Positions 19,211 to 42,560 of a stretch of DNA of 64,000 nt are shown in pieces. A program made the position numbers and the translations under genes. The DNA is from Candidatus Eremiobacteria bacterium (lineage in GTDB: Bacteria; Vulcanimicrobiota; Vulcanimicrobiia; Vulcanimicrobiales; Vulcanimicrobiaceae). Position 1 is the stretch's first letter, and every line of letters starts with the position of its first letter. The stretch lies in contig CAVWUU010000004.1 of the NCBI GenBank assembly GCA_963758295.1, positions 928,001-992,000 on the forward strand, written 5' to 3'. Below the pieces are notes generated by a model. The model ran no database searches and was not told the origin of the DNA. It saw only the letters and a list, made by a program, of their open reading frames with translations.

Positions 19211-20441
19211 CTATTTTGCGAAGTTCGGTACGCGCAGCGCCTCGCCGGTAAACCCGGTCGCTTCGCGCAGCGCGTCGACTTTATCGAGGCGCTCCCACGG
19301 CAGATCGAGGTCCGGACGTCCGAAGTGGCCGTACGCCGCCGTCTGCTTGTAGATCGGACGGCGCAGGTCCAGGTAGTGAATGATCGCGGCCGGACGCAGA
19401 TCGAAGACTTTCTTAACGGCTTCAGCGATCTGTTCTTCCGCGATCTTCGCGGTGCCGAACGTTTCGACGAGCACGCTCATCGGTTCGGCGACGCCGATCG
19501 CATACGCGACTTGCACTTCGCAGCGATCCGCAAGGCCCGCCGCGACGACGTTTTTCGCGACCCAACGCGCCGCGTACGCTGCCGAACGGTCCACCTTCGT
19601 CGGGTCTTTGCCCGAGAACGCGCCGCCGCCGTGACGCGCCATGCCGCCGTAGGTGTCGGCAATGATTTTGCGTCCGGTCAATCCGGCGTCGCCCATCGGG
19701 CCGCCGATGACGAAACGGCCCGTCGGATTCACGTAGATGCGCGTGTTCTCGTCCATCATCGCCGCCGGAATGACGTGCTTTGATGACGTGTTCCGTCACG
19801 TCTTTGCGGATCTGCTCGAGCGTCGCATCCGGATCGTGCTGCGTCGAAATGACGACGGCATCCACGCGCACCGGCTTGTCGCCTTCGTACTCGACCGTGA
19901 CTTGCGACTTGCCGTCGGGGCGCAGATACGGCAGCGTGCCGTCTCTTGCGAACGTGCGTCAAGACGGCGCGTGAGGTTGTGCGCCAGCACGATCGGCAGC
20001 GGCATCAGCTCCGGCGTTTCGCGGCACGCGTAACCGAACATCATGCCTTGATCGCCGGCGCCGGTCGATTCGAACTCGTCGCTTCTTGCCGGTGCGCGCT
20101 TCGAGCGACTTATCGACGCCCATCGCGATGTCCGGCGACTGTTCGTCGATCGACACGTTCACGCCGCACGTGTTCGCATCGAAGCCGACGACGGAATGGT
20201 TGTAACCGATCTCGCGGATCGTTTCGCGCACGAGACGCGGAATATCGACGTAGCTCTTCGTCGTGACTTCGCCCGCGATGTGTACCTGTCCGGTGATCGC
20301 GAACGTTTCAACGGCGACGCGCGACATCGGATCGTCGCGCAGCATCGCGTCGAGAATCGCGTCGGAAATTGCATCGGCGACTTTGTCGGGGTGCCCTTCG
20401 GTGACCGATTCAGAGGTAAAGAGACGGCGGTACTGATTCAC
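19211..20441 (-). CDS. metK: S-adenosylmethionine synthetase; frameshifted in assembly
   Basis: [66 protein letters not shown]. Confidence 0.95.
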
Positions 20442-20443
20442 GC

Positions 20444-22416
<1,973 letters not shown>

Positions 22417-27103: not shown

Positions 27104-27897
27104 GCAATGCCTCGCAGAAAGATTCGTTTTATGTCTGCGGCTTTGCCCGACACCCGGTCGATCGAGACGATCGCCGCGCAAAACTGCTTCGTACCGGTCT
27201 TTTGTACGTTGAAGCGCTCCGACATGCCGGTTAAGAAGCGATCTAATACAGCTCCAACCTCCATGCCGATGACGCCTTCGGTCGGGCCGGTCATGCCCAC
27301 GTCCGTGATGTAGGCAGTGCCGCCCGGCAGGACCTGTTCATCCGCCGTCTGCACGTGTGTATGCGTACCAAAGATAGCAGAGGCGCGGCCATCCAGGAAA
27401 CGAGCGAGCGCTACTTTCTCCGATGTTGCCTCGGCATGCACGTCCACAATGACGATGGGCGTTGCAACGCGCAAGTCCTCGATCAATTGATCGGCGCAGC
27501 GGAACGGATCGTCGACGGTCGGCATAAACGTGCGGCCCATGACGTTCAGCACGCCGACGGTTACGCCGTCCACGCTAAACGTGCCGCTGCCGCGTCCCGG
27601 AACGGTCGGCGGATAGTTCGCCGGACGAATCACCCGGTCGGTGTTATCTAGATACGTCTTGAAGTCGCGCTTGTCCCAGATATGGTTGCCGCTGGTAATG
27701 AAGTCGACGCCCGTTGCGAACATCTCCTCGGCGGTCTGCGCGGTAAGCCCAAATCCGCCGGCGGCATTTTCGCCGTTGGCAATGCAAGCATGGACGTTGT
27801 ATTGATCGCGGACAAGCGGCACACATCGTTTCAACGTGTCCCGCCCCGGCGAACCTACGACGTCCCCAATGAGCAGAAGATTTAGCGGGTCGTTCAG
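27100..27897 (-). CDS. ymdB: YmdB/TIGR00282 metallophosphoesterase
   Basis: LLIGDVVGSPGR (upstream of the called ORF), NGENAAGGFG, TSGNHIWD, DVHAEATSEK, GTHTHVQTAD, TDVGMTGP. Confidence 0.92.
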   Translation of the reverse strand: MNDPLNLLLIGDVVGSPGRDTLKRCVPLVRDQYNVHACIANGENAAGGFGLTAQTAEEMFATGVDFITSGNHIWDKRDFKTYLDNTDRVIRPANYPPTVPGRGSGTFSVDGVTVGVLNVMGRTFMPTVDDPFRCADQLIEDLRVATPIVIVDVHAEATSEKVALARFLDGRASAIFGTHTHVQTADEQVLPGGTAYITDVGMTGPTEGVIGMEVGAVLDRFLTGMSERFNVQKTGTKQFCAAIVSIDRVSGKAADIKRIFLRGIA

Positions 27898-28445
27898 CGG
27901 CGCGACGATGCCTTCGCTTTCCGTTGAGATTTCAAGAAGTAGACAAGCACTCGGGCTTCTTCGCGAAAGCCCACCAAACTCTTCGATTGCGCCGGATCGC
28001 GCAACGCCTCGATCGCGTAAAGCGCCGCCTCGTCCTGCGCGACCGGATCTGAATCCAAGTGATCCTCGGGAAGCGGGTTGCGTACGAGTGTATCGCCGTA
28101 CCGCTCTGCACAGAGCGTTACCAGCATCTCCAGTTCTTCTTTAGAGAACGTCTCCAGATCGCGCGTGACGTGAATGAATGTGGTCGTGCGATCGCTTTCG
28201 AACTCGACGCGAACCATCTGCGCTTCGTCTTTGGCCAGCAGCAGATACCCGCCGACGTGATCCTCGATGCCGTCGCGGAGCGCCGCCTGTGACTTCTTGT
28301 CGAGCCGGGACTTCACGGCAAACGTAAGCCGCACGGTGCGTTCGGCCGGCACCGACCGGATCGATGCGAGCTCAGGGAAGCGCACCAGCAACGCACATAC
28401 GAGGCTGACGGTGTCGGCATTTTCGACGGGTAGACGGCTATTCAT
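27894..28445 (-). CDS. Hypothetical protein
   Basis: 183-aa ORF coupled to ymdB; no family recognised with certainty. Confidence 0.7.
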   Translation of the reverse strand: MNSRLPVENADTVSLVCALLVRFPELASIRSVPAERTVRLTFAVKSRLDKKSQAALRDGIEDHVGGYLLLAKDEAQMVRVEFESDRTTTFIHVTRDLETFSKEELEMLVTLCAERYGDTLVRNPLPEDHLDSDPVAQDEAALYAIEALRDPAQSKSLVGFREEARVLVYFLKSQRKAKASSRR

Positions 28446-28586: not shown

Positions 28587-29138
28587 ATGAAGGTACGGGA
28601 GTTGCCCGGAGCCTTTGCCCTCGGCCTGCTAGCTTCGGTCCTCGGCCACTCGGCCGCGTATGGAAACGGGCACACCATGGGCGGCCCCTACCACAGTCTT
28701 TTGATCGCGCTGGTCGATGCCGGCGTGGGCGCATTCGTGCTGGCCGCGATTGCCTTAGCATGGTCCTGCGCAGGGCGATGCCTCGACGGAAGCGTCTTAG
28801 CAGCACGCCTTGCAACCTGCCTGCCGGGCATCCCCTTGTTAGGTCTAGCCACGACCGGCTGGTACTGCTTGTTCGAAAGCATCGAAGGTGCGCATGCCGA
28901 CGACCCGCTGCTCTTAATCGCGCTCGCCCTCGGTCTTGCAGTAGTCGTCGTCCACGCCGCGGCAACCGCCGCCATCGCGGCCGTGGCAAAACTCGTCCTC
29001 GCCATCTTCAGGAACGCCTTCGTTCAGCGAACACGGGTCTGGCTATCGTGCTTCGAACTGCCGGTTTTCGTATCGCGAATCGCCACAAGCCGCAAGCTTT
29101 TCGTTCGCCCGCCTCCTTGCATGACGGTCTGCGCCTAA
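28587..29138 (+). CDS. Multi-TM His-bearing leader protein ending in RPPP (putative arrest peptide)
   Basis: About 4 hydrophobic segments; GHSAAYGNGHTMGGPYH; C-terminus LFVRPPPCMTVCA*; 48 nt upstream of TBDR. Confidence 0.7.
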   Translation: MKVRELPGAFALGLLASVLGHSAAYGNGHTMGGPYHSLLIALVDAGVGAFVLAAIALAWSCAGRCLDGSVLAARLATCLPGIPLLGLATTGWYCLFESIEGAHADDPLLLIALALGLAVVVVHAAATAAIAAVAKLVLAIFRNAFVQRTRVWLSCFELPVFVSRIATSRKLFVRPPPCMTVCA

Positions 29139-29186
29139 GGCGCTCCCCAGCTATCGTCACTAAAACTACATTTAATCGAGGAGAAC

Positions 29187-31576
29187 ATGCAACGATTGCT
29201 CGCGGCGTTCGTCGCCGTCTTGTTCTTTTGGTGCGCGCTGCCTGCGTCTGCTGCAACCAGCGGCGTCGTGCGAGGCACCGTGGTCTTCAAGAACAAACCC
29301 CAGGCCGGCGCAGCCGTTTCGCTTACCGGCGAAGGCTCGCGCTTCTCTACCACTACAAACGCGAACGGTGAGTTCGTCTTTCCGGAAGTGCCGTTCGGTC
29401 ACTATCACGTAACGATTCACTCGAGCGGTGCGGCCGATCGCACGATCGACATCGACGTCAGCAGCGACTCGGTCGCGCGCGTCGACGTGTCGCTCGACCA
29501 GCTCAAAGAAATCGCCAACACCAATGTCACCGCGCATGCCGGAGTGGGCGGAACGCCGGTATCCGTGACCGCCGTTTCGCGCGCGCAAATCGCCACGTCG
29601 CCGAACCGGGACAGCCTCGACCGGTTGATTCAAACGGTTCCCGGGATCGTGCGTTTTTCGTACAACGAGCCGGTAGCGCACGGCTTTCACGGCTTGACCT
29701 ATGAAATCGACGGGGCGCCGCTTCCGCAAGCGACGTCTTCCAACTTTGCTGAGTTGATCGATCCGAAGTCGATCGATTCACTCGAAATTTTCACGGGCGC
29801 CATGCCGGCGGAATACGGCGGCAGCCGCGCCGGCGCCATCGTCAACGTCGTGACCAGCCGCCTTTCCGACGTGCCACCGGGCGCATACGGGACGGTGAGC
29901 CTTGGCGGCGGCAACTACGCTTCCGCCGTCGGCAGCATGAACGAACTCGCGCGTTTCGGGAACACCGAAGTCTCCCTCAATCTGAACACGCAGCGCACCG
30001 CTCGCGGCATCGATGCGCCGACGTATCAACCGATTCACGACGACTCGTCGCAAAGCGATGGCTTTTTGCGAGTCATCACGCAGCTCAATCGCGCAATCGA
30101 CGCTGGCGTTCGATCTGTCAAATCAGTTCGCGCAGTTTCAGATCCCCATCAACACGGATTCCAATAATCCGAACGACCCAATCTTTCAGGTTCCGGGCAC
30201 GGACGACGTGCAGCGGGAGTACGACCGCTTCTTCAACCTGAATTACACGCGGAGTTCGAAGGACGGCAACAGCGTTTTCCAGCTGATTCCCTGGGTCCGG
30301 TACACCCGCGTTGCGTATGAAGGCGATCTGCCAAACGACGTACTTGCTCTTGCGCCCAATGGCTCTACCGATCCGAACGCTCCGGCGTTTGCCCAGCAGG
30401 TTGGCCTTGCGCAAGATAGGCGCGCGACGTACACCGGGTTGCGCATGTCCCAGCTGCACACCTCAGAACACCACAACGTGAAGGTGGGGCTCGACGCAAG
30501 CCGCGAGAACTTCGACGCGACGCAACTCTTCGGTTGCTACTCTGCAGATTGTAATCTGGCGCCGTCTACTCCGCCGCCCGCTCCGCCGTCGCCGCCTGGA
30601 TACTTCGGCTTTTCGACTGCGCAGCAACGTGCCGGATCGCAAATCGGACTTGTACGCGCAAGATCAATGGGAGCCGTCGCGCAGCCTCGCAGTTAACTAC
30701 GGCCTCCGGTACGATCATTCCACGGGATACACCGGCGGGTGGCAACTCAGCCCGCGCATCGGCTTCAATCTCTCCGATGGCGACCGCAACATCTCCACGC
30801 GTACTACGGCCGCTTCTACGCTGCACCGCAGTTGGAAGACGTGCGGCAAGATTGCGTTCTTTTTAGCGGATGCACGGGATCGCCGGCGTACGACTTAAAG
30901 CCCGAAGCGCGACTCTTACCTGGAAATGGGCGTCGCGCACACCTTCAACGCACACATGAAGGGTTACGTGAACGTTTTCAAGCGCACGGCCGTGAACGTA
31001 TTGGATACGACGCAGTTCTTGAACACACCGCTCTTCGCGGTATTCAACAACGCAATCGGTGAAGACACCGGCGTGGAATTCCGGTTAGAGGACTCTTCGC
31101 ACTCCGGCGACTCGTGGTTCCTCAGCGGCACCGTATCGGGATCGTATGCGGGCGGCATCTCCGGTTCGACGTTTCTGTTTCCGCCGGACGTGAACGGCGG
31201 ATTGCCGCTCACGTCGCCCGCGCAGCTTGCCCCCGAAGACCACGATCAAACGGTCGCGCGATCGAGAGGATACACGCACCGCTTCGGCGCCGGTCACGCA
31301 TGGTATGGGAGCCTGCAGGCAAACTACGGCACCGGCTATCCGGTCGAGTTTGAAAGCACGAACCAAGATCTAAGTGGGCGTTTGCCCTCGCACACGACCT
31401 TTGACCTCGGCTTCGGAAGGACGCTGCCGATCGACGCACGGCGCGGGCTCGGCGTGAGTCTCGACGTCGAAAACCTGTTGAACCATCAGTACGTCATCAA
31501 GATTGCCAACGGCTTCAACACGACGCAAATCGGGAGCGGCCGGCGGATTTTATTTCGCATAACCGCTCCCTTTTAG
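29187..31576 (+). CDS. TonB-dependent receptor with N-terminal carboxypeptidase-regulatory-like domain; frameshifted
   Basis: Signal peptide, TTTNANGEFVF..VPFGHY, plug IDPKSIDSLEIFTGAMPAEYGG, NYGLRYD, LSPRIG, VENLLN, terminal Phe. Confidence 0.85.
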
Positions 31577-31579
31577 AGG

Positions 31580-33877
31580 CTACTTCAGGTTGACCTGAAT
31601 CATGACGCTGCGGGGACGCGCATAGTGCGTTCCCTGCAGCGAGTTGTCCAGCGTCAACGCATAGCGGTCGTCGAACAAGTTCGCGATCGCGAGCGACATC
31701 GTGGCATGCGGCGAAAGCTGCACGCCTTTTTCCGCGTTGAAGATCAAATGCGGCGGAACTTTGCAGTTAATAACGTTCCCGTTGCAGTTTGCGGGGTCGG
31801 TCGAAAGACCGCTGCCGTACTCGCCGTTGAACGAGAACCAGCCGCCGTGCGTGTCGTTTAACAGCACGCCGCCATTGGCGTCCCAACGTTGATCGTGATC
31901 CGACTGCACGAACATGCCGCCCGGCAGAGCGCCGGCCGCGCAGTTCTGCAACAGCTGTGTTTCGCAGTTTTCGCTGTTTTGCGCCATGCTGTGCGTTAGC
32001 GAGAAGTACGCACGCCCGTCGCGTACAAGCGGATGCTGCAAATACGCGGTCATGATGTCGACACGTCCCTGCGGGAAGTTGATGTCCTGATGCAGGTTGG
32101 TAGCGCCGACCTGCGTGTCGTCGAGATAATCGGTCGAAACCTTATGGGAAATACGGATGCCCAGATCCGACGACCCGACGGCCGTGTGGCCGCCGATTTC
32201 GTATAGCGAATCACGCTGCGGCTTCAGGTCGAACACGGCCCCCGGACTGCTGCCGCTCACGTAGAGCGATGCGGCTGTTGCCGGCGAGACGTTCTCAAAG
32301 GAGAACGGAACGAAAAGCCGCCCGTAGTAGGCGTAGACGCTGGCTTTCTTTCCGAGGGTGCGCGTCAACTTGATACGCGGGCTAAACTGCGAGAAGCCGC
32401 TCTTAAAATCGGTCGAGCCCACCTGGAATGCGTCCATGCGCAGGCCGTAGTCGAGAAGATAATTGCCCATCGTCCAAGAGTCTTGCAGATACAGCTCCTG
32501 CTGGTGCGCGACGTTGGGCGACGTGTCGGTCGCGGTGAACGTGCCGCCGCTCGGATTAAGCGCGTTATCCGGTTGAAGCGTGATGACGTAGTCTTTGTCG
32601 ACGACGGACGCGTCCATAGATCGCTCCGGCACGCACTTCGTGTTTCGATGAACGCAACGCGTAGTCTGTCGTCCAGCGATAGTCATGCGACGTACGGTTG
32701 GCGAAAACCGAATAGTAGTTGCAGTCACTGAAGTCCGTGCAGACTCGTGCCCGCCGCGGGAGCAAGGTCGTTTCCGGGATCGTTGGTGTCGAGCAATTCG
32801 AGCGGCGAAACGACGGACCAAAGGACAGCGCCCCGTGATCGCCGATCGAGTGACGGTACTGCAGCGAAACGAACGTATCGTTCTGATATTCGTTGTCGTC
32901 GGTTGCGAGCGGCGCGGAGTGCGAAGTATCGATCGGAATCTGATAGGTCTGCAGCGTGTGCATGACGTCGAGATTGACTAGATCCGCACCGTGCATCGGC
33001 AAGCTGTAGCGCAAGAATTGGCTTGCGTCGCTGGCGTCGTCGTGCATCGCATCGATCACGGGCGGATCGATACCGCGGGCGTTGCGCCCGAACGACGTTG
33101 AAAGGCTTAAGGCACCGCGTCCGGACGGCGCATGATAGCTGAAGGTTCCGTCCGACGTATCGAAGGAGCCGCCTTCGGCGGAGAATTGATAGCCGGCCGC
33201 ACCGCTGTACGCGCGGGTTCCGATATTCAGGACGGCGGCAAATTTGTCGCCGTACTGCGCGGGATACGCGCCTTCGAGCGCGTCAAGGTAGCCGATATTC
33301 GCCGGATCGATTTCATTGCCGATCCACGGTTCAAGCTCGCCGGCATCTGCACGCCGTCGATGTAGTAATTGAGACCGTTGTGATCGCCGTTGATGTGCAC
33401 TTGGCCGTTCGAGCCGGCTGCTGCCGACGGCAGCTGCGCGAGAATTGAGGGCATGTACTGTCCCGTCGGCAGATGCGCAAGCTGTCCGGAATCGATCGCG
33501 ACGTCGGTCCCCGAGCGCTTGGAAACGGGGTTCGTAACGGTGACGGTGTGGCCGATGGTCTTCAGCGGCGTCAATGCAAGCGTAACGGTCTCGCCGGACG
33601 ACGTAAGCGAGACGGGCTCGCTGATCTTCTCATCGCCCTTCACGACCGTAAGCTGGTATCGTCCGGCGTCCAGAGTCGGGAACGCGAAGTGCCCCGCGTT
33701 GTCCGTTTTGGTGGACAGCGTGAGGTTTTCGCCCGCGGCTTGCACGACCGCGCCCGAAACGGGGTGGCCCGTGTCGTCGAAGACGATGCCGTTCAAAAAG
33801 ATCGGCGTTTGCGCCGGTGCGCTGAGCGGCGCAAGCGCTAAAAAGGCCCCAAGAAACAGGGCAGAAATCCGTGACAT
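31580..33877 (-). CDS. TonB-dependent receptor with N-terminal carboxypeptidase-regulatory-like domain; frameshifted
   Basis: TKTDNAGHFAF..LDAGRY, GAYPAQYGD, LYLQDSW..DYGLRMD, FSPRI, IANLFDDRY, RPRSVMIQVNLK. Confidence 0.85.
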
Positions 33878-33900
33878 GATTCTCCTAGCAAAGGTAGACG

Positions 33901-33921
33901 AAAAGACGCCTGTGACGGCGC
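33901..33921 (-). terminator. Attenuator-like hairpin between leader ORF and TBDR
   Basis: Minus strand GCGCC-gtcaca-GGCGT-CTTTT, 14 nt after the leader stop. Confidence 0.45.
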
Positions 33922-33935
33922 GGCCGGTTGACTAC

Positions 33936-34494
33936 CTAGCGGAGAGGTGGAGGGCGGTTGCCCCGGACCGGAACGTACGCGAAGTACGGCCCGGCAAGGC
34001 ACGCGGGGCGCGGAAGCGCAACGCGGCGTGCCGTGAACACGCGAGATTCGAAGCGGGCGAGAGTGGTGTGGTGCAGCCGCTCGCGTACGAACGCAAGCAA
34101 TGCCGAGGTGATAAGACTCGCAATCGCCACCGCGACGAGTGCCACCAGCGCGTTCGCTGCGTCGAGAGAACCTTCTCCGAAAAGCGTCACGCCCGCAAAT
34201 CCGAACTGGACGGCTGCGCTTACCCCGAAGAAGCGAAGGCCTTGGCCTTCGAAGGGCAGATCGTTGGCTAGCAACCCGCCGAGCCGCCGGAGCTCACAGC
34301 GGCCGGTCGCGAGGATGATGCCGCTAACGGCGAGGCAAAGCACCGCAATAACGCCCAAGTAGGCATGCAGCGGCGAAGCGGCTACGGAGAGCATGCTTTG
34401 GTGCAGCGCCAGCGCCTCGGCCGCGATGTGCGACACGATAGCGAGCGGTAAGGTGCAGGCCGGCATACAGCCCGGCAGCTCTAACCCTGGTCAC
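33936..34494 (-). CDS. Multi-TM His-bearing leader protein ending in RPPP (putative arrest peptide); true start probably GTG 34494 with a 1-nt frameshift
   Basis: SHIAAEALALHQ..PLHAYL; about 4 TM segments; C-terminus VRGNRPPPLR*; 58 nt upstream of TBDR. Confidence 0.7.
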
Positions 34495-34497
34495 GAT

Positions 34498-34514
34498 TTG
34501 CGATTGATTCTCAA
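34498..34514 (-). promoter_or_regulatory. Fur-family-like box
   Basis: TTGAGAAT-C-AATCGCAA imperfect palindrome, 3 nt before the leader start. Confidence 0.55.
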
Positions 34515-34588: not shown

Positions 34589-35621
34589 ATGCATGAACTC
34601 TCACGCAGTACAACCGTCATAACAGGGGGCGCGGGCCTAATTGGCAGCGCCCTGATTTGGTTTTTGAACCAGCGCGGATACGAAGACATTATCGTCGTCG
34701 ACCGCTTAGATAATTCTGAGAAATGGAAGCATCTGGTTCCATTACGCTTCTCGGAATACGTCGATGCCGATGATTTCGCCGATCTGACAGCCGACCATCC
34801 GGACGCATTCGGCGACATTTCCGCGGTGTATCACCTTGGCGCTTGCTCTTCAACGACGGAGACGAACGCCGATTACCTTATGCGCAACAACTACGAGTAC
34901 ACCAAGCAGTTGGCGCACTGGGCATTGGAAAAAGACGCGCGTTTCGTTTATGCCTCTTCTGCCGCGACGTACGGCGCGCTGGAAAGCGGCCTCTCCGATA
35001 CGGCGGATCTGCGTTCGCTCCGCCCGCTGAACATGTATGCCTATTCGAAGCATCTTTTCGATCTGTACGCGCAGCGCACCGGACTCGGCGGCAGCATGGT
35101 CGGCTTAAAATACTTCAACGTTTTCGGCCCGAACGAAGACCATAAAGGCGACATGCGCAGCATCGTGCTCAAGGCGTTCGAGCAGATTCGCGATACGGGA
35201 TCCGTTCGGCTCTTCAAGAGCTATCGCCCGCGAATTCCGGCACGGCGAACAAGCGCCGCGACTTCATCTACGTCAAAGACGCCGTCGCGATGACCGTTGA
35301 CGTCGCGGAATCCGGTCTTACCGGCCTGGTCAATATCGGCTCCGGTGAGGCGCGCACTTGGCTCGATCTCGTGCGGCCGATCTTCGCTGCGTTAAACGTT
35401 CCCGAAAGCATCGAGTTCATCGAAATGCCGGAACAGCTTCGCAGCAAATACCAATATTCGACTTGCGCGCGACATGAAAAAGTTCCGCGCCACGGGCTAC
35501 ATGCGCGCGATGACGCCGCTCAGCGCCGCTGTGTCCGATTACGTTCGCAATTATCTTCGTGCCGGGACGCGTGCTCGATCCGTCCGATACGAGCGATCTC
35601 ATCTCACTCACCATTTCGTAG
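34589..35621 (+). CDS. rfaD: ADP-L-glycero-D-manno-heptose 6-epimerase; frameshifted 3' half
   Basis: ITGGAGLIGS, HLGACSSTTE, YASSAATYG, PLNMYAYSK, LKYFNVFGPNEDHKGDM, RDFIYVKD, KYQYST. Confidence 0.9.
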
Positions 35622-35628
35622 GGGACCG

Positions 35629-36383
35629 ATGCCAGACTCGAATTCGCGCGCCCGCCGCCGCCAGACGACTCGCGGTGGTCAAACGCCGCCGCCTCAACGG
35701 CGCGATCCGATGACTACCGTGTACATCTCGGTCGCCGTTATTCTCGTGTTGTTGATCGGCGGTCTTGCCTTTGCGCGTTGGCAACAAAACCGCGCGGTGG
35801 ACGCCGCACTCGCAACGCCGTCTCCGGCACCGATTGCGTCGGGCGAAAAGACGCCGGCACCCGTCCAGCTGGCGGACGGCAGCGCACTCGGCGCCGCATG
35901 ATCTTTAAGTCGTCGAACCAGGGCGCGAATACGGCTCAGGGCGGTCATGGACAGGCGGTCGACGGTATCACGTGCGCAGGCATGGAGTATATGACGCTGC
36001 ACGTGCATTCGCACTTGGCGATTTTCAACAACGGCAAACAGGTTCAAGTTCCGAAACTCGTCGGCGGAACGCCGACGTCGGGCGGCGGATGTCTCTACTG
36101 GCTGCACACGCACGACGCGAGCGGCATCATTCACATCGAAGCGCCGCAGCTGGCGCCCCCGGGACAGAGCGGCTTCACGCTTGGGAAATTTTTCGACATC
36201 TGGGGCGAGCCGCTGACCGCCGATAACGTCGGAGGCATCAAAGGCCCGGTTACGGCCTACGTCAACGGAGTGAAGTACGACGGCGACTTGAAGGCCATTC
36301 CGCTCAGAGCACATCAGCAAATCGTGCTCGAAGTCGGCAAAGTGGTACCGCCGCCGAACTACACGTTTCCGCCGAACGATTAG
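35629..36383 (+). CDS. Membrane-anchored His-motif (putative metal-binding) protein; probable frameshift near 35895
   Basis: TM anchor, then LHVHSHL..GCLYWLHTHDASGIIHIE..FTLGKFFDIWG. Confidence 0.7.
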
Positions 36384-36955
36384 CCTTTCAAGACCTTATC
36401 GATCTCGCGCTGCAATTCGCCGAACGAGATCTCACCGGAATTCAGATAAGAAACTTTCTTGTCTTTTCCGATCACAGCGATCGTCGGGAAGCCGCCCTGC
36501 AGATACAGGTTCGCAATCGAGAGCGTCGGATCGTAAGCGGCGATCGGATACTGGACGTGAAGCTTGTCCTTGAACGTAAGGACGTCGAGTTGCGAAGACG
36601 GTGACGTGCCGTCCATGCCGGTGTCGCTCCCGGGGATCGCGATGAAGTCGACGCGCGACTTGTACGCGCCGTAAAGCTTGTCGATGACGGCCGTTTCGCG
36701 TTGGCAATGCGGACACCACGTCGCAAAGACTTCCAAGAAGACCGGCTTGTTCGCCGTCGCAAGATCGAACAAGCCGTTCGTCGTTGCGGCGCGAAACTCG
36801 GGAGCCGGCCGGCCCATTTGGGCCGTTCCTACCGTCGGTGCTTGCGAGGCGTTCTGCAGTTGGTGCGACGGATGCAATTTCGTGTAAAGCACCCCGCCGA
36901 TAACAAGAATCGCGACGACGACGATCGAGATGGTGGCGAGCAGGCGTTGATTCAT
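36380..36955 (-). CDS. TlpA-family thioredoxin
   Basis: N-terminal TM; FATWCPHCQRE; GFPT. Confidence 0.88.
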   Translation of the reverse strand: MNQRLLATISIVVVAILVIGGVLYTKLHPSHQLQNASQAPTVGTAQMGRPAPEFRAATTNGLFDLATANKPVFLEVFATWCPHCQRETAVIDKLYGAYKSRVDFIAIPGSDTGMDGTSPSSQLDVLTFKDKLHVQYPIAAYDPTLSIANLYLQGGFPTIAVIGKDKKVSYLNSGEISFGELQREIDKVLKG

Positions 36956-37398
36956 TTCCTAACGAGTCTCCGGTCCAAGGCAAGCACTCCAGGTGCTCCG
37001 TAAGCAATGATGGCTGCGATTGCAGCGAGGATCAGATCGAAAGCGACGTGCGGCCAGTCCGCGGTTGCGGCGTCGGCCGGTCCAAAACATCCGCAGTTCG
37101 CCGGGATATGTCGAACGACCGCCGAGGCGATGGCTGCGGCATATAAAACAAACTGCGCCGCCGCCACCGCGCCGGCGACGCGCGTGAAGAGGCCGGCAAC
37201 GAGATAGAGACCGAGCAACACTTCAAAGTATGGCAGCACCAAGGCGAGCGGCGCGGTGATCGCTGCCGGCAGAAGGCGAAAGCCGGCAATAGCCGCGGCG
37301 AGATCGGCTGCGTGTCCGATTTTCAGCGCCCCGGCAACGATCAACACCGCGCCTAAGAGCACGCGGAGGATCAGCACGGCGATCGATAGGGTCGGCAT
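36952..37398 (-). CDS. MauE/DoxX family membrane protein
   Basis: LRVLLGAVLIVAGALKI..LPYFEVLLG..NCGCFG. Confidence 0.85.
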   Translation of the reverse strand: MPTLSIAVLILRVLLGAVLIVAGALKIGHAADLAAAIAGFRLLPAAITAPLALVLPYFEVLLGLYLVAGLFTRVAGAVAAAQFVLYAAAIASAVVRHIPANCGCFGPADAATADWPHVAFDLILAAIAAIIAYGAPGVLALDRRLVRK

Positions 37399-37464
37399 GT
37401 CAGCACGCTGCTTGCCAGGATGGCAACGATTTACCTGCGAGTGCCACAGGTGAGCGCCCAGAAA

Positions 37465-37479
37465 TGAAAATGGTTTTCA
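37465..37479. promoter_or_regulatory. Fur/Zur-like box
   Basis: TGAAAAT-G-GTTTTCA 7-1-7 palindrome between divergent mauE and NRAMP genes. Confidence 0.55.
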
Positions 37480-37509
37480 CGGATATTTCTCGGAGGGCCA
37501 AAGAGCCGA

Positions 37510-37525
37510 GTTAGGCTAACCTAAC
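37510..37525. promoter_or_regulatory. DtxR/MntR-family operator
   Basis: GTTAGG-CTAA-CCTAAC perfect inverted repeat 5 nt before the NRAMP ATG; resembles TTAGGTTAACCTAA boxes. Confidence 0.7.
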
Positions 37526-37530
37526 AACAC

Positions 37531-38811
37531 ATGGCCGCCGCAGAATCGCCCGCCGCTCCCGCCGCCCGCCGAACCGACTGGCGGCGCTGGCTTTTGCGGT
37601 TCCTGGCCGTCGCGGGGCCCGGTCTCGTCGTGGCCTTTGCCGACACGGAAGCCGGAAGCATCACGACTGCGGCAACCTCGGGAGCGCAGTACGGCTACAA
37701 ACTGATTCTGCTGCAATTGCTCCTGATCGTACCGCTATTTGTAGTGCAAGAAATGACGGTTCGATTAGGCGTCGTTACGGGCAAAGGCCACGCGCGCCTC
37801 ATTCGCGAGCACTACGGCATCGGCTGGACGTGGGTGTCGCTCGGGACGATGCTCGTTACAAATATTGCGGCGCTCGTCACCGAATTCGCCGGTATCGCCG
37901 GCGCAGCGATGATTTTTGGTCTGAATCCCGCACCGATCGTCATCGTTGCGGCGGTGCTGTTGATCGGCGTAATCTTTACCGCTTCGTACAAACGCGCGGA
38001 AACGTTTGCACTTGCGCTGTGCTTAGTGGAACTGCTGTTTATTCCGGCGGCTTTTGCGGCGCATCCGCCCGTGCACGAAGTCGTAATGAAAGGGTTGTTC
38101 GGAAGCCAGCCGCTCACCGATTACAACTACTTGCTGCTGATCGCTTCAAACATCGGCGCGGTTATTATGCCGTGGATGATCTTCTATCAGCAGAGCGCGA
38201 CCGTCGATAAGGGACTGCGCTTGAACGATTTGAATTTCGCGCGCGTCGACACGGCGCTCGGTGCGGTCTTCACGCAAGCGATCATGTGCGCCGTCGTAAT
38301 TACGACCGCCGCGACGCTCTTCGTCCGGCACATCCCGGTAAGCGACGCAGCGCATGCGGCCATTGCGCTCGAACCCCTCGTCGGACACCTGGCCGGCGTT
38401 ACGTTCGGCGTTGCGCTGATCGGCGCGTCGATGCTCGGCGCGTTCGTCGTCTCCCTCGCAACCGCGTGGGCATTCGGCGAAGCGTTCGGCTGGCGTTGTT
38501 CGCTCAACGACGGATTGCGCGCAAAACGGTTCACGGGACTGTTCGTGGCGTGCGTCGTCGTAGCGGCCGGCGTAGTGCTTATTCCGAATTTGCCGCTCGT
38601 GAAGATCACGGTCTACGTCGAGGCGTTCAACGGCTTCGTCCTCCCGATTGTGCTCGGTTTCTTGCTAGTGCTCGTCAACGACAAACGCGTCATCGGCGAG
38701 CGGCACAACCGCCCGCTGGGGAACGCGATCACCTTTGCGCTTTCCGGTCTGTGCATCGCGCTCGGCGTGTGGATGGCGTTCATGACGATTATCCACCCGG
38801 GCGGCAGCTAA
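37531..38811 (+). CDS. NRAMP-family divalent metal transporter
   Basis: GPGLVVAFADTEAGSITT, GAQYGYKL, QEMTVRLGVVTGKG, NIGAVIMPW. Confidence 0.9.
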   Translation: MAAAESPAAPAARRTDWRRWLLRFLAVAGPGLVVAFADTEAGSITTAATSGAQYGYKLILLQLLLIVPLFVVQEMTVRLGVVTGKGHARLIREHYGIGWTWVSLGTMLVTNIAALVTEFAGIAGAAMIFGLNPAPIVIVAAVLLIGVIFTASYKRAETFALALCLVELLFIPAAFAAHPPVHEVVMKGLFGSQPLTDYNYLLLIASNIGAVIMPWMIFYQQSATVDKGLRLNDLNFARVDTALGAVFTQAIMCAVVITTAATLFVRHIPVSDAAHAAIALEPLVGHLAGVTFGVALIGASMLGAFVVSLATAWAFGEAFGWRCSLNDGLRAKRFTGLFVACVVVAAGVVLIPNLPLVKITVYVEAFNGFVLPIVLGFLLVLVNDKRVIGERHNRPLGNAITFALSGLCIALGVWMAFMTIIHPGGS

Positions 38812-38848
38812 GTCATAGCCCGGCGCCCGCTATGGGCGTAAGCTACGC

Positions 38849-39445
38849 ATGATGAACCGCGTCGGAACGCTCGTGCTTGCATCGCTGCTCGGCCTTACCG
38901 GCTGTGCCGGCATGGGGCGCGCCGATGCGCGTTTCCAAGGGACATCCCTTCACGCCGGTCCCGCACCGGCGATTACGCTGACCGATGACCTGGGTCAATC
39001 CTGGTCGCTTGCGGACCAGCACGGAACGACTGTCGCGGTCTTCTTCGGCTACACCCACTGCCCGGACACGTGTCCGCTCACGCTTGCGAAGTTAACGCGC
39101 GCGGTAGCGCAACAGGGCGCTAACTCCGCCAACGTCGAGATCGCGTTTGTCACTGTCGATCCGGAACGCGATACGCCGGCGGTGATGCACCGATACATCG
39201 CGCACTACTCCGGCGCGCATATCGTCGGCCTTACGGGAACGCGATCACAAGTCGAGCAAGTGGAACGCGCGTATCACGTGTGGGCGCAACGAATTCCCGG
39301 CAAGCACGCCGGTATCGACGATTATGACGACGCCCACAGTTCCGTCGTTTACTTGATCGATCGCGACGGCAATCAACGCGTGATGCACGACGACGACGAT
39401 TCACTGCAGGCGTTTACCGCCGACATCCGCACGCTCGCCCGATGA
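38849..39445 (+). CDS. SCO-family copper chaperone lipoprotein
   Basis: Lipobox LTGC; FFGYTHCPDTCP; TVDPERDTP; HSSVVYLID. Confidence 0.92.
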   Translation: MMNRVGTLVLASLLGLTGCAGMGRADARFQGTSLHAGPAPAITLTDDLGQSWSLADQHGTTVAVFFGYTHCPDTCPLTLAKLTRAVAQQGANSANVEIAFVTVDPERDTPAVMHRYIAHYSGAHIVGLTGTRSQVEQVERAYHVWAQRIPGKHAGIDDYDDAHSSVVYLIDRDGNQRVMHDDDDSLQAFTADIRTLAR

Positions 39446-40454: not shown

Positions 40455-41021
40455 ATGGCAGCACCGCGAAAGCCTTTCGAACCGCCCTCCCCGGAGCAAC
40501 GGGCGTTCCTCGAACGTGCGATCGAGCAGTACGGCAAGGCGACCTATAACTTTGCCCTGCGGCTCACGCACAACGAGGCCGACGCTCGCGACCTGACTCA
40601 GGACGCGTTTATCCGGGTGTATCGCGCCTGGCGCAGTTTCCAGCCCGGCACATCGTTTCTCTCGTGGATCTACCGAATCGTCACGAATTTGCATCGAGAT
40701 GAACTTCGGAGGCGAAAAGGACGTTATCAAGAGGAGATCCCTGAGGATAATGCGCCCCAAGATTTCGGAGGAGAGCGCCCGCTTGCTGTTACGCCCATCG
40801 AGGAAATGGTCGAATCACAGTTTAGTGAGGCGGTGTCAAAAGCGCTTGAAGCACTTTCTCCGGATCAACGGCAAGTTGTAGTTCTCGCGGATATCGAGGA
40901 GTACAGCTACCAAGAGATAGCAGAGATCGTAGGCTGCTCCATCGGAACCGTTCGTTCTCGTCTCCATCGGGCGAGACACCAACTTCGAAAACTCGTTGAA
41001 CACTACTCGGCAAAATCATGA
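40455..41021 (+). CDS. ECF RNA polymerase sigma factor
   Basis: ARDLTQDAFIRVY, FLSWIYRIVTN, YSYQEIAEIVGCSIGTVRSRLHRAR. Confidence 0.95.
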   Translation: MAAPRKPFEPPSPEQRAFLERAIEQYGKATYNFALRLTHNEADARDLTQDAFIRVYRAWRSFQPGTSFLSWIYRIVTNLHRDELRRRKGRYQEEIPEDNAPQDFGGERPLAVTPIEEMVESQFSEAVSKALEALSPDQRQVVVLADIEEYSYQEIAEIVGCSIGTVRSRLHRARHQLRKLVEHYSAKS

Positions 41022-41545
41022 AACAAGAACAACATCCTAGCACCGAAAAATTAATCGATTACATCCACCGCGAACTCTCGCCGGAAGACGATGCCGCAAT
41101 TCTGATGCACGTCGAGTCGTGCGATGAATGCCGCGCGCGCTATCAACTCGAAGCACGCCTGTCGGAGTCGCTTCGGGTACACGCGCGCGAAACCGAACGC
41201 GAGCTGCCGCAGGGTGTAGTCAACGGTATTTGGGCCGCGATTGAATCGCCGCCCCAGCCCTCTCTCGCCGATCGCTTGCGCGCGCTCTTCCGGCCGGCGG
41301 TCGCCGTGCCCGTTACTGCGGTGGCGGCGTTGGCCATCTACTTCGGCGTTACGGCCACGCACCACGCCGGTTCCACGACGATGATCGACGCGGCGTACTA
41401 CCTGGACGATCACGCGGCGTTGACCAGCACCGTTCCCTTCGGTGAAGGCAACGCGGTGCCCACGCAGCTAGAAAGCGATCAAACGAACAGCGATGTCGTC
41501 GCAGTCAGCAACACCACCGTCATGACGGCGGACGTTGCGCGCTAA
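41018..41545 (+). CDS. Zinc-finger (HxxxCxxC) anti-sigma factor
   Basis: HVESCDECR plus one TM; overlaps sigma stop. Confidence 0.88.
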   Translation: MKQEQHPSTEKLIDYIHRELSPEDDAAILMHVESCDECRARYQLEARLSESLRVHARETERELPQGVVNGIWAAIESPPQPSLADRLRALFRPAVAVPVTAVAALAIYFGVTATHHAGSTTMIDAAYYLDDHAALTSTVPFGEGNAVPTQLESDQTNSDVVAVSNTTVMTADVAR

Positions 41546-42560
41546 GATCGCGCTGGCGGCGCTCGCAGCGATTTTCCTAGCGGCGCCGCATGCCGGCGCC
41601 GCGCCGGCGTCGCAGCCGGCCGAAGGGTTGTTGCGGGATGCGATGGGTGCACCGCAGCAGCTTTCATACGTCGGCGAAGTCCAGACGCTGCGTTTCGGCG
41701 CGCAGAAATCCGAAGCGGCAATCTACCGCATCGAACACAAGGCGCCCGATCTTACGCGCCGCTGGTATCTCGCACCCCAGGATCTTTACGGCGATTCCAT
41801 CATCTCGCGCGGCGATACGTCCTATTCCATCGACGTCAAACGCGATCACGTGGTCGTTACGCAAGACGATCCGATCGACGATCAAGTGGCCGAAGACGAT
41901 AACTTCGCGCTGCTGAACGCGAACTACAACGCCCTCTACGGGCCCGACGAAACATCCAACGGACGCGCGGTGAAGGTCGTGCTTCTGAATAATAAGCACA
42001 CCGGTCAGACGACCATGCGCGTGCGCATCGATGCAGCGAGCAAGCTGGTTCTCGAGCGTGAAACGTACGGCGCGAACGGCTCGCTGCTTGCACAGACGCG
42101 CTTCGAACAGCTTCGGTATACGAACGACATTCCGGCCGCGGTCTTCGACGTGCCGGCAACGCTTCCAAGAATTCAGGGCCCCAGCCGCGGCATACCGTCC
42201 AACAATCTTCAGGAACTGCTGAAAACCGCCGGCTTTTCGGCGCACGGTCCGAAGTATCTGCCGCTCGGTTTTACGCCGGTCGAAGGCGACGTTGCCGACG
42301 TAAAAGGTATTCGGACGTTACACCTGCTGTATTCCGACGGCATTCGCACCGTTTCGCTTTTTCAAAATGCGAAAGGCGCGGCGGTCGACATGTCGCGATA
42401 TCGCGTCAGCCAAGTCCATTTCGAGAATAAAGACGGCCAGTACGTTCAAGAAGGGCCGACAACGCTCTTGGCTTGGTCGGAACAGGGATTGCATTTCGCA
42501 CTGGTCGGCGATCTGGATTTGAACGAACTGCAGCGCATTGCTGCGTCGGTGGTTCCGTAA
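41535..42560 (+). CDS. MucB/RseB-like periplasmic sigma regulator
   Basis: Signal peptide; LolA-like N-domain; HLLYSDGIRTVSLFQ; ALVGDL. Confidence 0.8.
   Translation: MRAKIALAALAAIFLAAPHAGAAPASQPAEGLLRDAMGAPQQLSYVGEVQTLRFGAQKSEAAIYRIEHKAPDLTRRWYLAPQDLYGDSIISRGDTSYSIDVKRDHVVVTQDDPIDDQVAEDDNFALLNANYNALYGPDETSNGRAVKVVLLNNKHTGQTTMRVRIDAASKLVLERETYGANGSLLAQTRFEQLRYTNDIPAAVFDVPATLPRIQGPSRGIPSNNLQELLKTAGFSAHGPKYLPLGFTPVEGDVADVKGIRTLHLLYSDGIRTVSLFQNAKGAAVDMSRYRVSQVHFENKDGQYVQEGPTTLLAWSEQGLHFALVGDLDLNELQRIAASVVP

Follow-up and report, generated by a model that had tools for sequence, protein, structure and literature searches.

In SecM, MifM, and VemP, a stall near the C-terminus of a membrane-targeted chain opens a helix at the downstream Shine-Dalgarno (SD) sequence, and pulling by the membrane machinery releases the stall. 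The same stall and SD-helix design is summarized for secM-secA, mifM-yidC2, and vemP-secDF2 in the work on CutF, which itself combines a PPP motif with an SD-shielding stem-loop in periplasmic copper sensing (PMC9973294, bioRxiv 10.1101/2025.02.05.636593). CruR is described as an upstream open reading frame (ORF) with a RAPP motif that controls a TonB-dependent receptor (TBDR) (PMC9426467). A genome-wide survey reports RAPP and RGPP upstream ORFs ahead of TBDRs across Gram-negative bacteria, nearly all with signal peptides, as well as Streptomyces lividans peptides with four transmembrane (TM) helices for which arrest was shown in vitro and in vivo (PMC12992588). Here we describe two putative leader genes, ORF1 and ORF2, in a 64,000-nucleotide stretch of DNA from a Candidatus Eremiobacteria bacterium (assembly GCA_963758295.1, contig CAVWUU010000004.1, positions 928,001 to 992,000; "the window" below). 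Each encodes a predicted four-TM protein that ends in an RPPP motif, and each stands directly ahead of a TBDR gene. An earlier note on this DNA had called the pair a candidate new system; its proposal of a polytopic RxPP leader controlling a TBDR is supported in silico by the motif, by its spacing to the membrane part, and by an SD helix, while "new system" was too strong, as the principle is not new: CruR, CutF, and the Streptomyces four-TM RAPP peptides are already published. The leader family itself is real, well conserved, computationally coherent, and probably undescribed, and we consider it fairly likely that its members are RxPP arrest or pause genes that unmask receptor translation, as CutF and CruR do.

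The leaders share with CruR of Bordetella pertussis (DUF2946; bp2923-bfrG) the arrangement of an upstream ORF ahead of a TonB-dependent transporter and an R-x-P-P motif, placed three residues from the end in CruR. A conserved ligand-to-arrest spacing is also common to both, given as 45 residues from CXXC to RAPP in CruR (PMC9426467) and found here as 45 +/- 2 residues from the end of TM4 to the motif Arg. CruR is described with RAPP, a signal peptide, CXXC, a 162-nt spacer, and Rho-dependent termination, whereas the leader family has RPPP, polytopic proteins, spacers of 31–107 nt, and an SD-masking helix. The published descriptions of CutF from Rhodobacter capsulatus (cutFOG) resemble the leaders in a proline repeat near the stop codon (GPPPRL in CutF, NRPPPLR in ORF2), in an mRNA helix that shields the next gene's SD sequence until a stalled ribosome opens it (predicted for the leaders), in a periplasm-exposed nascent chain with metal ligands (presumed for the leaders), and in the presence of elongation factor P (EF-P). 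CutF differs in being a small signal-peptide DUF2946 protein with CxxxC, ahead of a multicopper oxidase, in Proteobacteria; the leaders have four TM helices and putative His and Glu ligands, stand ahead of TBDRs, and are named from Eremiobacterota only. SecM, MifM, and VemP, as summarized in the CutF work, have in common with the leaders a stall near the C-terminus of a membrane-targeted chain that opens an SD helix (again predicted for the leaders), yet they monitor Sec or YidC activity ahead of sec or yidC genes, unlike the leaders, which precede outer-membrane receptors or, in one branch, a resistance-nodulation-division (RND) pump.

The S. lividans peptides SLIV_18480, SLIV_27375, SLIV_33595, as well as SLIV_33605, are like the leaders in having four predicted TM helices and an arrest motif near the C-terminus, and in SLIV_18480 a His/Met metal site is predicted as well, and the gene downstream is metal-related; they differ in having RAPP or RGPP cores, in belonging to Actinomycetota, and in lying ahead of YcnI-type, thioredoxin, or extracytoplasmic function (ECF) sigma genes (PMC12992588). 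This comparison is one of descriptions, not of sequences. A nearby unnamed cluster in the ESM Atlas is commonest in Actinomycetota, which is a lead only.

The family is distinct from DUF2946 (PF11162), with which the earlier note had suggested comparing it by hidden Markov model. None of 23 type A members (ORF2-like proteins) and none of 29 type B members (ORF1-like proteins) matched DUF2946 at E <= 1, and a six-frame search of the window's own genome gave no match at either leader (best E 0.115, elsewhere). Instead of a single export signal and a small exported domain, the leaders have four long hydrophobic helices and a cytoplasmic tail, and the residues conserved family-wide are His and Glu, with no conserved CxxC or CxxxC. 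They do carry a C-terminal motif of the RAPP or proline-repeat kind at a fixed distance from the ligand motif. As in the RAPP-like class, in which x is a small residue and the Arg is irreplaceable, an R-x-P-P core lies near the C-terminus of a small membrane protein, and the co-directional downstream gene has a ribosome-binding site that is predicted to be masked, a feature that is strong family-wide and weak at the ORF1 junction.

That RPPP could serve as such a core is consistent with published work. It was the strongest XPPP staller in E. coli lacking EF-P (PMC4176338); RxPP with x = G, A, S, or P was recovered from random-library screens, an Ala-to-Pro substitution in ApdP retains arrest, and x = P is reported to be tolerated, partially to fully, by ApdA and ApdP (PMC12992588). 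The survey in the latter source extracted only RAPP and RGPP ORFs, and "RPPP" occurs 0 times in its main text. In the literature full text that we searched, with supplementary tables outside its scope, we found no paper that links either RPPP or Eremiobacterota/Vulcanimicrobiota to arrest peptides or to leaders of TBDRs.

The motif is nearly invariant. ORF2 has 7 homologs at 56–81% identity, all of which end GPY[FY]AYVP.[RH]GNRPPP plus 0–6 residues. ORF1 has 52, with the consensus RRRF[AV]RPPP, 0–11 residues beyond the motif, and a C-terminal RPPP in 50. Overall, 59 of 61 close homologs have RPPP, the exceptions being one RSPP and one LPPP, both related to ORF1. Across 40 leaders, six Arg codons and all four Pro codons are in use at the motif, so it is the peptide that is conserved, and the suggestion in the earlier note that the shared motif is selected is borne out; CCT is enriched there (33% vs 14% elsewhere in the same ORFs). 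When the type A profile was searched against 1.84 billion cluster representatives, 172 clusters were found at E <= 0.001. Among the 150 representatives listed, RPPP lies at most 20 residues from the C-terminus in 123 and RAPP is found in 2 (RPPP or RAPP in 125/150), while 7 have RPPP with 38–75 residues beyond it, 3 have LPPP, 14 are fragments or tail-less, and 1 is a spurious tandem-repeat protein. The last, P0106, is a predicted protein of 1175 aa in which a unit of 88 aa with the end ...GKRGERPPPPPTYLSI is repeated identically in tandem ~13 times, and it matched the profile tail; it is probably an assembly or rolling-circle artefact, unrelated to the leader family. In the alignment of 148 representatives (hmmalign), the R column holds Arg in 130, Leu in 3, and a gap in 15 (Arg 130/133), and the last two P columns are Pro in all 133 sequences with a residue. 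The two RAPP members, P0185 and P0217, end in NRAPP, while their relatives at 39–48% identity in the same clade have NRPPP. This interchange ties the motif directly to the canonical RAPP arrest core.

The motif also keeps its distance from the membrane. The end of TM4 lies 43–47 residues from the motif Arg in 118 of 128 representatives, and E98 lies 76–80 residues from it in 107 of 121. The TM4-to-motif linker shows little conservation and contains many Arg, Ala, and Pro residues; conservation returns only in the ~8 residues ahead of RPPP (an aromatic at -7, N/S at -1 in type A, RRF[AV] in type B), and the residues beyond the motif are variable and number 0–13. Fixed length with variable sequence is the pattern to be expected of a tether that serves as a ruler from the membrane to the peptidyl-transferase centre. 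In force-profile studies, the pull of an inserting TM helix is maximal ~40–45 residues from the arrest point.

The membrane part was modelled with AlphaFold2 from the type A alignment (ORF2; predicted local distance difference test score, pLDDT, 76.8). The model has helices at residues 2–20, 32–54, 76–98, and 103–138, a short amphipathic helix within the TM2-TM3 loop, and a disordered tail at 139–176, and four conserved hydrophobic blocks are present in both the type A and the type B alignments; the earlier description of ORFs of ~180 aa with ~4 TM helices fits these results, and the His strings and the "EG" after TM3 that it quoted are present in both leaders. When the ORF2 model was compared with the PDB by Foldseek, nothing matched below E 1, which for a simple helical bundle is uninformative on fold novelty. 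Where a residue is present in the 148-representative alignment, H13 is His in 104/120, E17 is Glu in 116/120, H34 is His in 122/130, and E98 is Glu in 132/140. With four TM helices and a cytoplasmic C-terminus, H13, E17, H34, and E98 would lie at the periplasmic ends of TM1, TM2, and TM3, so that in the model the type A leader probably presents all four on the periplasmic side. In family f3, the second taxonomic family in which the leaders occur, the TM3-TM4 turn reads GEGCPFCGHD. A GEGCxxC pair is found in 20 of 125 representatives scored and in neither ORF1 nor ORF2.

ORF1 and ORF2 are distant paralogs, judging by their profiles. BLASTP between them gives only E 0.03, and the earlier note had taken the two leaders to be otherwise very divergent, which we correct here: profile-profile alignment (hhalign) of type A with type B gives 95% probability and E 3.6e-8 over 167 columns, in which the same conserved residues align. 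Both types share a His in TM1 (with a Glu in type A), another His where TM2 begins, an L-P within the cytoplasmic loop, a Glu where TM3 ends (GEG or ExxE..H), and TM4 followed by a ~45-residue tail and RPPP. In the type B alignment A3 (53 sequences including ORF1), the invariant columns are L14, H21, P80, E97, E100, H103, R174, P175, P176, and P177.

A further line of support, absent from the earlier note, is added by the predicted RNA. We examined 24 non-redundant leader-receptor junctions, in some of which the receptor start codon was assigned by the SD rule and by eye. By inspection of the minimum free energy folds, the receptor SD was paired in 24/24 junctions with a segment of 5–20 nt at or directly past the RPPP codons. 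When a 14-nt SD window was compared with all of the ~430–500 upstream windows, the best partner began -10 to +8 nt from the PPP end in 14/24, against an expectation of ~4% by position alone. The motif-proximal arm ranked 5/453 in the upstream scan at the ORF2 junction and 18/455 at the ORF1 junction. Compared with 499 SD-bearing genes of the same genome, the junctions had a median of -14.75 vs -11.1 kcal/mol (Mann-Whitney p 2.5e-4), with ~85 upstream windows per background gene and 19 per leader. Cognate arms averaged -17.66 kcal/mol and swapped arms -11.07 kcal/mol, with 0/20000 permutations as low; the complementarity is therefore locus-specific and not merely that of CCUCC with GGAGG. Among the 24 arms, that of ORF2 was the best for the ribosome-binding site of its own receptor A (column rank 1).

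The position of the 5' arm also fits a stalled ribosome. With the 5' window confined to -9 to +21, 297 nucleotides of the 5' arms are paired, and 241 of them are situated at +11 nt or less relative to the last Pro codon; +11 nt is about the leading edge of a ribosome with the third Pro codon in its A site, so that the arm would fall inside the stalled footprint. The evidence for the arm's position is that of the unrestricted upstream scan above. Ten type A junctions folded together (RNAalifold) share the same outer helix and an inner hairpin that spans the stop codon, and half of the pairs show double changes. In this helix, 87.8% of cells are paired, compared with 30–43% when the partner is slid, and covariation is 0.325 vs 0.194 in shuffled alignments (0/500 shuffles). 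Motif spacing, which the earlier note had proposed as a check, is fixed only on the membrane side: between PPP end and start codon it ranges over 47–119 nt, so that it is the pairing and not the distance that is conserved. In f3 type A junctions (e.g., L013:2014-2114 and L014:1413-1515 (-)), a small conserved hairpin, GCAUCAGCC-UAA-GGCUGAUGC and variants, sits inside the SD helix with the leader stop codon as its loop; it may explain the semi-conserved leader ends in AS[AL] before the stop.

Coordinates of both leaders and their partners are given in Table 1, and those that the earlier note had given were exact. Between RPPP and stop, ORF1 has six codons (CMTVCA; C-terminus ...RKLFVRPPPCMTVCA) and ORF2 has two (LR; C-terminus ...VRGNRPPPLR). 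The receptor ATG at 29187 lies 48 nt past the ORF1 stop, that at 33877 lies 58 nt past the ORF2 stop, and the two leader-receptor operons are convergent, the receptor genes terminating at 31576 and 31580. The first 13 codons from GTG 34494 match the N-terminus of ORF2 homologs in another frame than ATG 34466, which indicates one more frameshift, an indel near 34455. Divergent from ORF1, a 183-aa ORF at 27894-28445 (-) has no Pfam or NCBIfam family.

Table 1. Features of the two leader-receptor operons in the window (positions are those of the window)
Feature	Position	Strand	Description
Leader ORF1 (type B)	28587..29138	+	183 aa, four-TM; conserved H21, H36, P80, E97, E100, H103, and C-terminal RPPP
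RPPP codons of ORF1	29106..29117	+	CGC CCG CCT CCT; proposed stall site
5' arm, ORF1 junction	29113..29128	+	overlaps the last Pro codons and the next 11 nt; duplex -11.2 kcal/mol
3' arm, ORF1 junction	29168..29183	+	holds receptor SD GAGGAG; 4–19 nt ahead of ATG 29187
TonB-dependent receptor B	29187..31576	+	signal peptide, CarboxypepD_reg, Plug, barrel; three frames, changes near 30092 and between 30650 and 30906
TonB-dependent receptor A	31580..33877	-	signal peptide, CarboxypepD_reg, barrel; three frames, changes near 32615 and 33330
3' arm, ORF2 junction	33881..33899	-	holds receptor A SD AGGAG
5' arm, ORF2 junction	33930..33945	-	last nt of the PPP codons through the stop codon; duplex -18.3 kcal/mol
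RPPP codons of ORF2	33945..33956	-	CGC CCT CCA CCT
Leader ORF2 (type A)	33936..34494	-	176 aa counted from ATG 34466; probable true start GTG 34494, in another frame; conserved H13, E17, H34, L70-P71, Q87, E98, RPPP
Imperfect palindrome	34499..34513	.	TGCGATTGATTCTCA (7-1-7, Fur-box-like); directly precedes ORF2, in the gap that separates it from divergent hldD

The named members of the family come from a narrow range of organisms. No Pfam or NCBIfam family matches either leader, and the ESM Atlas gave only unnamed clusters, with DUF6412 at 0.79 as a weak lead. Named homologs come from Candidatus Cybelea, Eremiobacteraeota, or Vulcanimicrobiota only; wherever family members carry organism names at all, these are of Eremiobacterota/Vulcanimicrobiota, and the RAPP-bearing branch carries none. 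A search of the whole genomes of 61 relatives found the leader family in 22 (two of them unpublished). Type A is present in 64 of 301 genomes of the phylum (four of the 64 unpublished), all within two families (f1 44/206, f3 19/22), and in none of 72 genomes searched across 19 other families. In f3, types A and B are divergent neighbours, each with its own receptor downstream. A six-frame scan of the window's genome for other ORFs with an RPPP end gave 21 matches; the two with family-like tails were rejected, as both lie in non-coding frames over real genes, and no third leader was found.

That a TBDR follows each leader, as the earlier note had it, is confirmed by the domains found downstream, CarboxypepD_reg together with Plug and/or the TonB barrel. 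The TBDR assignment itself follows from Plug (PF07715) and barrel (PF00593) domains behind a signal peptide, with an extra N-terminal CarboxypepD_reg. No substrate-specific or equivalog NCBIfam model came near its cut-off for these receptors. At named Eremiobacterota loci, CarboxypepD_reg (with or without Plug and TonB barrel) was found in 17 of 18 ORFs downstream of leaders, and three further leader loci also have a TBDR downstream. Other partners were seen as well. Behind one type B leader, L033:11-919 (-) encodes a 303-aa signal-peptide protein beginning ...AHVVCGDRVFPTTLTMDDPGVSDE, without a Pfam or NCBIfam family, in place of a TBDR. At L022:3-1439 (-), in genome G055, a divergent type A leader with an NRPPP end, and with AVAIESIMESAEHG in TM1 in place of AHLAxEF, has an AcrB/AcrD/AcrF-family RND pump downstream, and the same arrangement is found at locus L021 of the unpublished genome G048. 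A leader ahead of an RND pump suggests a portable regulatory module.

Both receptor genes in the window are split. Intact orthologs of receptor B (~795 aa, L027:6795-9182 (-)) and receptor A (782 aa, L027:4367-6715) are present in the same-genus genome G002, and tblastn of these against the window shows two frameshifts in each receptor. Other genes are split too: the metK domains lie in separate ORFs (window 19211-21716), hldD (34589-35293) is truncated at profile position 205/316, and one of the two efp loci in the genome is in two frames (G000:C4:1336728-1337280). The assembly has 82% completeness in 6 contigs. So many split genes at this completeness and contig number suggest an indel-rich long-read assembly rather than to pseudogenes, and the frameshifts in the receptors and ORF2 are probably assembly indel errors. 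No obvious homopolymers were seen in the sequence around the frameshift sites, and should the frameshifts prove genuine, both receptors of the window could be pseudogenes. Among the sequencing runs listed, one DNA run contains 6% of the sampled words, and none is an RNA run containing the locus. Farther out, 2–5 kb from ORF2 (window 36380-39445), lie a redoxin, an Nramp-family metal transporter (37531-38811), and an SCO1/SenC copper chaperone (38849-39445), and an ECF sigma, zf-HC2 anti-sigma, and MucB/RseB-like trio occupies 40455-42560.

Fur operators are 7-1-7 inverted repeats of the TGATAAT-N-ATTATCA type, and the conserved palindrome of the type A leaders presumably resembles operators of the Fur family. 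The copy in the window has 2 mismatches to TGAGAATNATTCTCA. At most of the related loci a copy with <=2 mismatches precedes the type A leader. The palindrome, close to TATTGAGAATNATTCTCAATA, was seen at L002, L003, L005, L008, L010, L013, L014, L016, L017, L020, and L028-L038, and in f3 it lies within the divergent promoter region that types A and B share. The genome has 3 matches only at <=2 mismatches. At <=3 mismatches there are 32, equal to the shuffled expectation of 36, so any regulon would be small.

We propose that the leader, during its translation, would enter the inner membrane and form a bundle of four helices there, and that peptide-bond formation would slow or arrest once the ribosome has come to the C-terminal R-P-P-P, which is an R-x-P-P core and belongs to the RAPP class; arrest at this point is suggested by the motif's sequence and conservation. 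The end of TM4 would then be ~45 residues from the peptidyl-transferase centre, and the ribosome would cover the RPPP codons and ~11 nt more, that is, the 5' strand of the SD-sequestering helix. The stall would expose the receptor's ribosome-binding site and allow the TBDR to be translated, making it presumably the ON state; upon release, the helix would re-form and receptor translation would cease. Stall duration would most likely be tuned by the nascent bundle, through metal on the periplasm-side His and Glu (in some members Cys) and/or through the pull of TM4 insertion, and we point to these modulators because of the conserved His and Glu, the constant length of the tether, the box resembling that of Fur, and what is described for CruR and CutF. 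The conserved periplasm-side His and Glu would thus presumably sense metal, the receptors would import a metal or a metal chelate, and metal control at the level of transcription would come on top through the upstream Fur-like operator. By analogy with CruR, it would be logical for an uptake receptor that bound metal releases the stall and turns the receptor OFF; the opposite polarity, that of CutF, may also apply here. A more detailed version, which we hold only tentatively and rate as rather unlikely in all its parts, would make the nascent bundle a co-translational periplasmic metal sensor: while the ribosome waits at RPPP exactly 45 residues past TM4, a His2-Glu2 (+/- Cys2-His) site at the periplasmic ends of TM1-TM4 would gate the packing of the TM3-TM4 hairpin, and the closing bundle would act as a mechanical signal that pulls the chain off its arrest, re-closes the SD helix, and shuts off the uptake receptor, with the two paralogous pairs providing two specificities over a cytoplasmic Fur-type repressor.

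Several observations weigh against control by stalling. Little sets the two junctions of the window itself apart: when 14-nt windows are compared, an equal or stronger upstream partner exists in 72% (for ORF1) and 62% (for ORF2) of background genes, and the cognate duplex of ORF1, at -11.2 kcal/mol, is weak. CCU CCN Pro codons are inherently complementary to GGAGG, so part of the pairing signal is inflated, and plain translational coupling would likewise leave the SD masked by the upstream gene's 3' end. The loci are phylogenetically related, so the counts overstate their independence. RPPP occurs 20 times in the long ORFs of the genome where 17.4 are expected (observed/expected 1.15, in a crude set contaminated by spurious high-GC ORFs); if avoidance is indeed absent, the motif alone could hardly be a strong arrest signal, and upstream context would be needed. 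The genome encodes EF-P, the normal reliever of PPP stalls, and the leader family itself includes the three representatives with LPPP and the seven with long extensions past the motif noted above. Finally, these are large proteins (180–230 aa) that are confidently folded (pLDDT 85–92 in the TM helices) and could have a function of their own.

The last point leads to the alternative that survives best, namely, that the leaders are ordinary stable inner-membrane proteins, for example metal-binding or transport partners, of the receptor, in which RPPP is a structural or interaction motif of a cytoplasmic tail and the SD pairing is plain translational coupling, for which translation of the leader would suffice without any stall. 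A confidently predicted four-helix bundle with conserved polar residues, a size beyond that of classical leader peptides, the tolerance of RPPP elsewhere in the proteome, and the unexceptional helix energies at the window's own junctions all agree with it. Yet one would not expect a binding motif to switch to RAPP inside a single clade, nor to hold a fixed distance of 45 residues from TM4 across a disordered linker that is not conserved. The coincidence of the motif with the 5' arm of the SD helix in 14/24 unrestricted scans speaks against it as well, and the placing of type A ahead of an RND pump (L022) and of type B ahead of an unrelated 303-aa protein (L033) is fitted better by a portable module. 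We judge this explanation improbable.

Less probable again is an action on transcription, in the manner of CruR, where a paused ribosome would block Rho loading on the short intergenic RNA and its release would bring termination before the receptor. Such a mechanism is described for a TBDR (PMC9426467), rho is present in the genome, and the intergenic stretches of the window and of several loci are C-rich and G-poor outside the SD, but the spacers are merely 31–107 nt, and a covarying SD helix is superfluous to a Rho model. Rho attenuation and control through the SD helix could coexist. Least probable of all is that PPP simply ties leader and receptor expression to EF-P activity (as for CadC and in part CutF) and so reports translational or physiological state rather than a nascent-chain signal, for although RPPP stalling in E. 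coli depends on EF-P (PMC4176338), CutF regulation involves it (bioRxiv 10.1101/2025.02.05.636593), and efp is in the genome, the conserved periplasm-side His and Glu and the fixed TM4-to-motif spacing would be left unexplained, as would the RAPP variants, RAPP arrest being reported as refractory to EF-P (PMC12992588).

If leader stalling does control these receptors, stall-based control of metal uptake through the nascent chain would no longer be limited to DUF2946 proteins in Proteobacteria but would extend to a polytopic family unrelated to them, from a phylum of which little has been cultured. Its core would be RPPP rather than RAPP or RGPP, a class that the published RAPP/RGPP survey would have missed; as that survey was confined to these two cores, RxPP leaders elsewhere may be under-counted. 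With its fixed 45-residue tether from TM helix to arrest, its covarying SD helix, and its two paralogs in each genome, the family would offer a natural test case, one in which the route from a ligand bound outside the cytoplasm to the peptidyl-transferase centre becomes testable. For Eremiobacterota, it would provide a first functional handle, with a probable link to metal, on an unannotated gene pair and the receptors that follow it.

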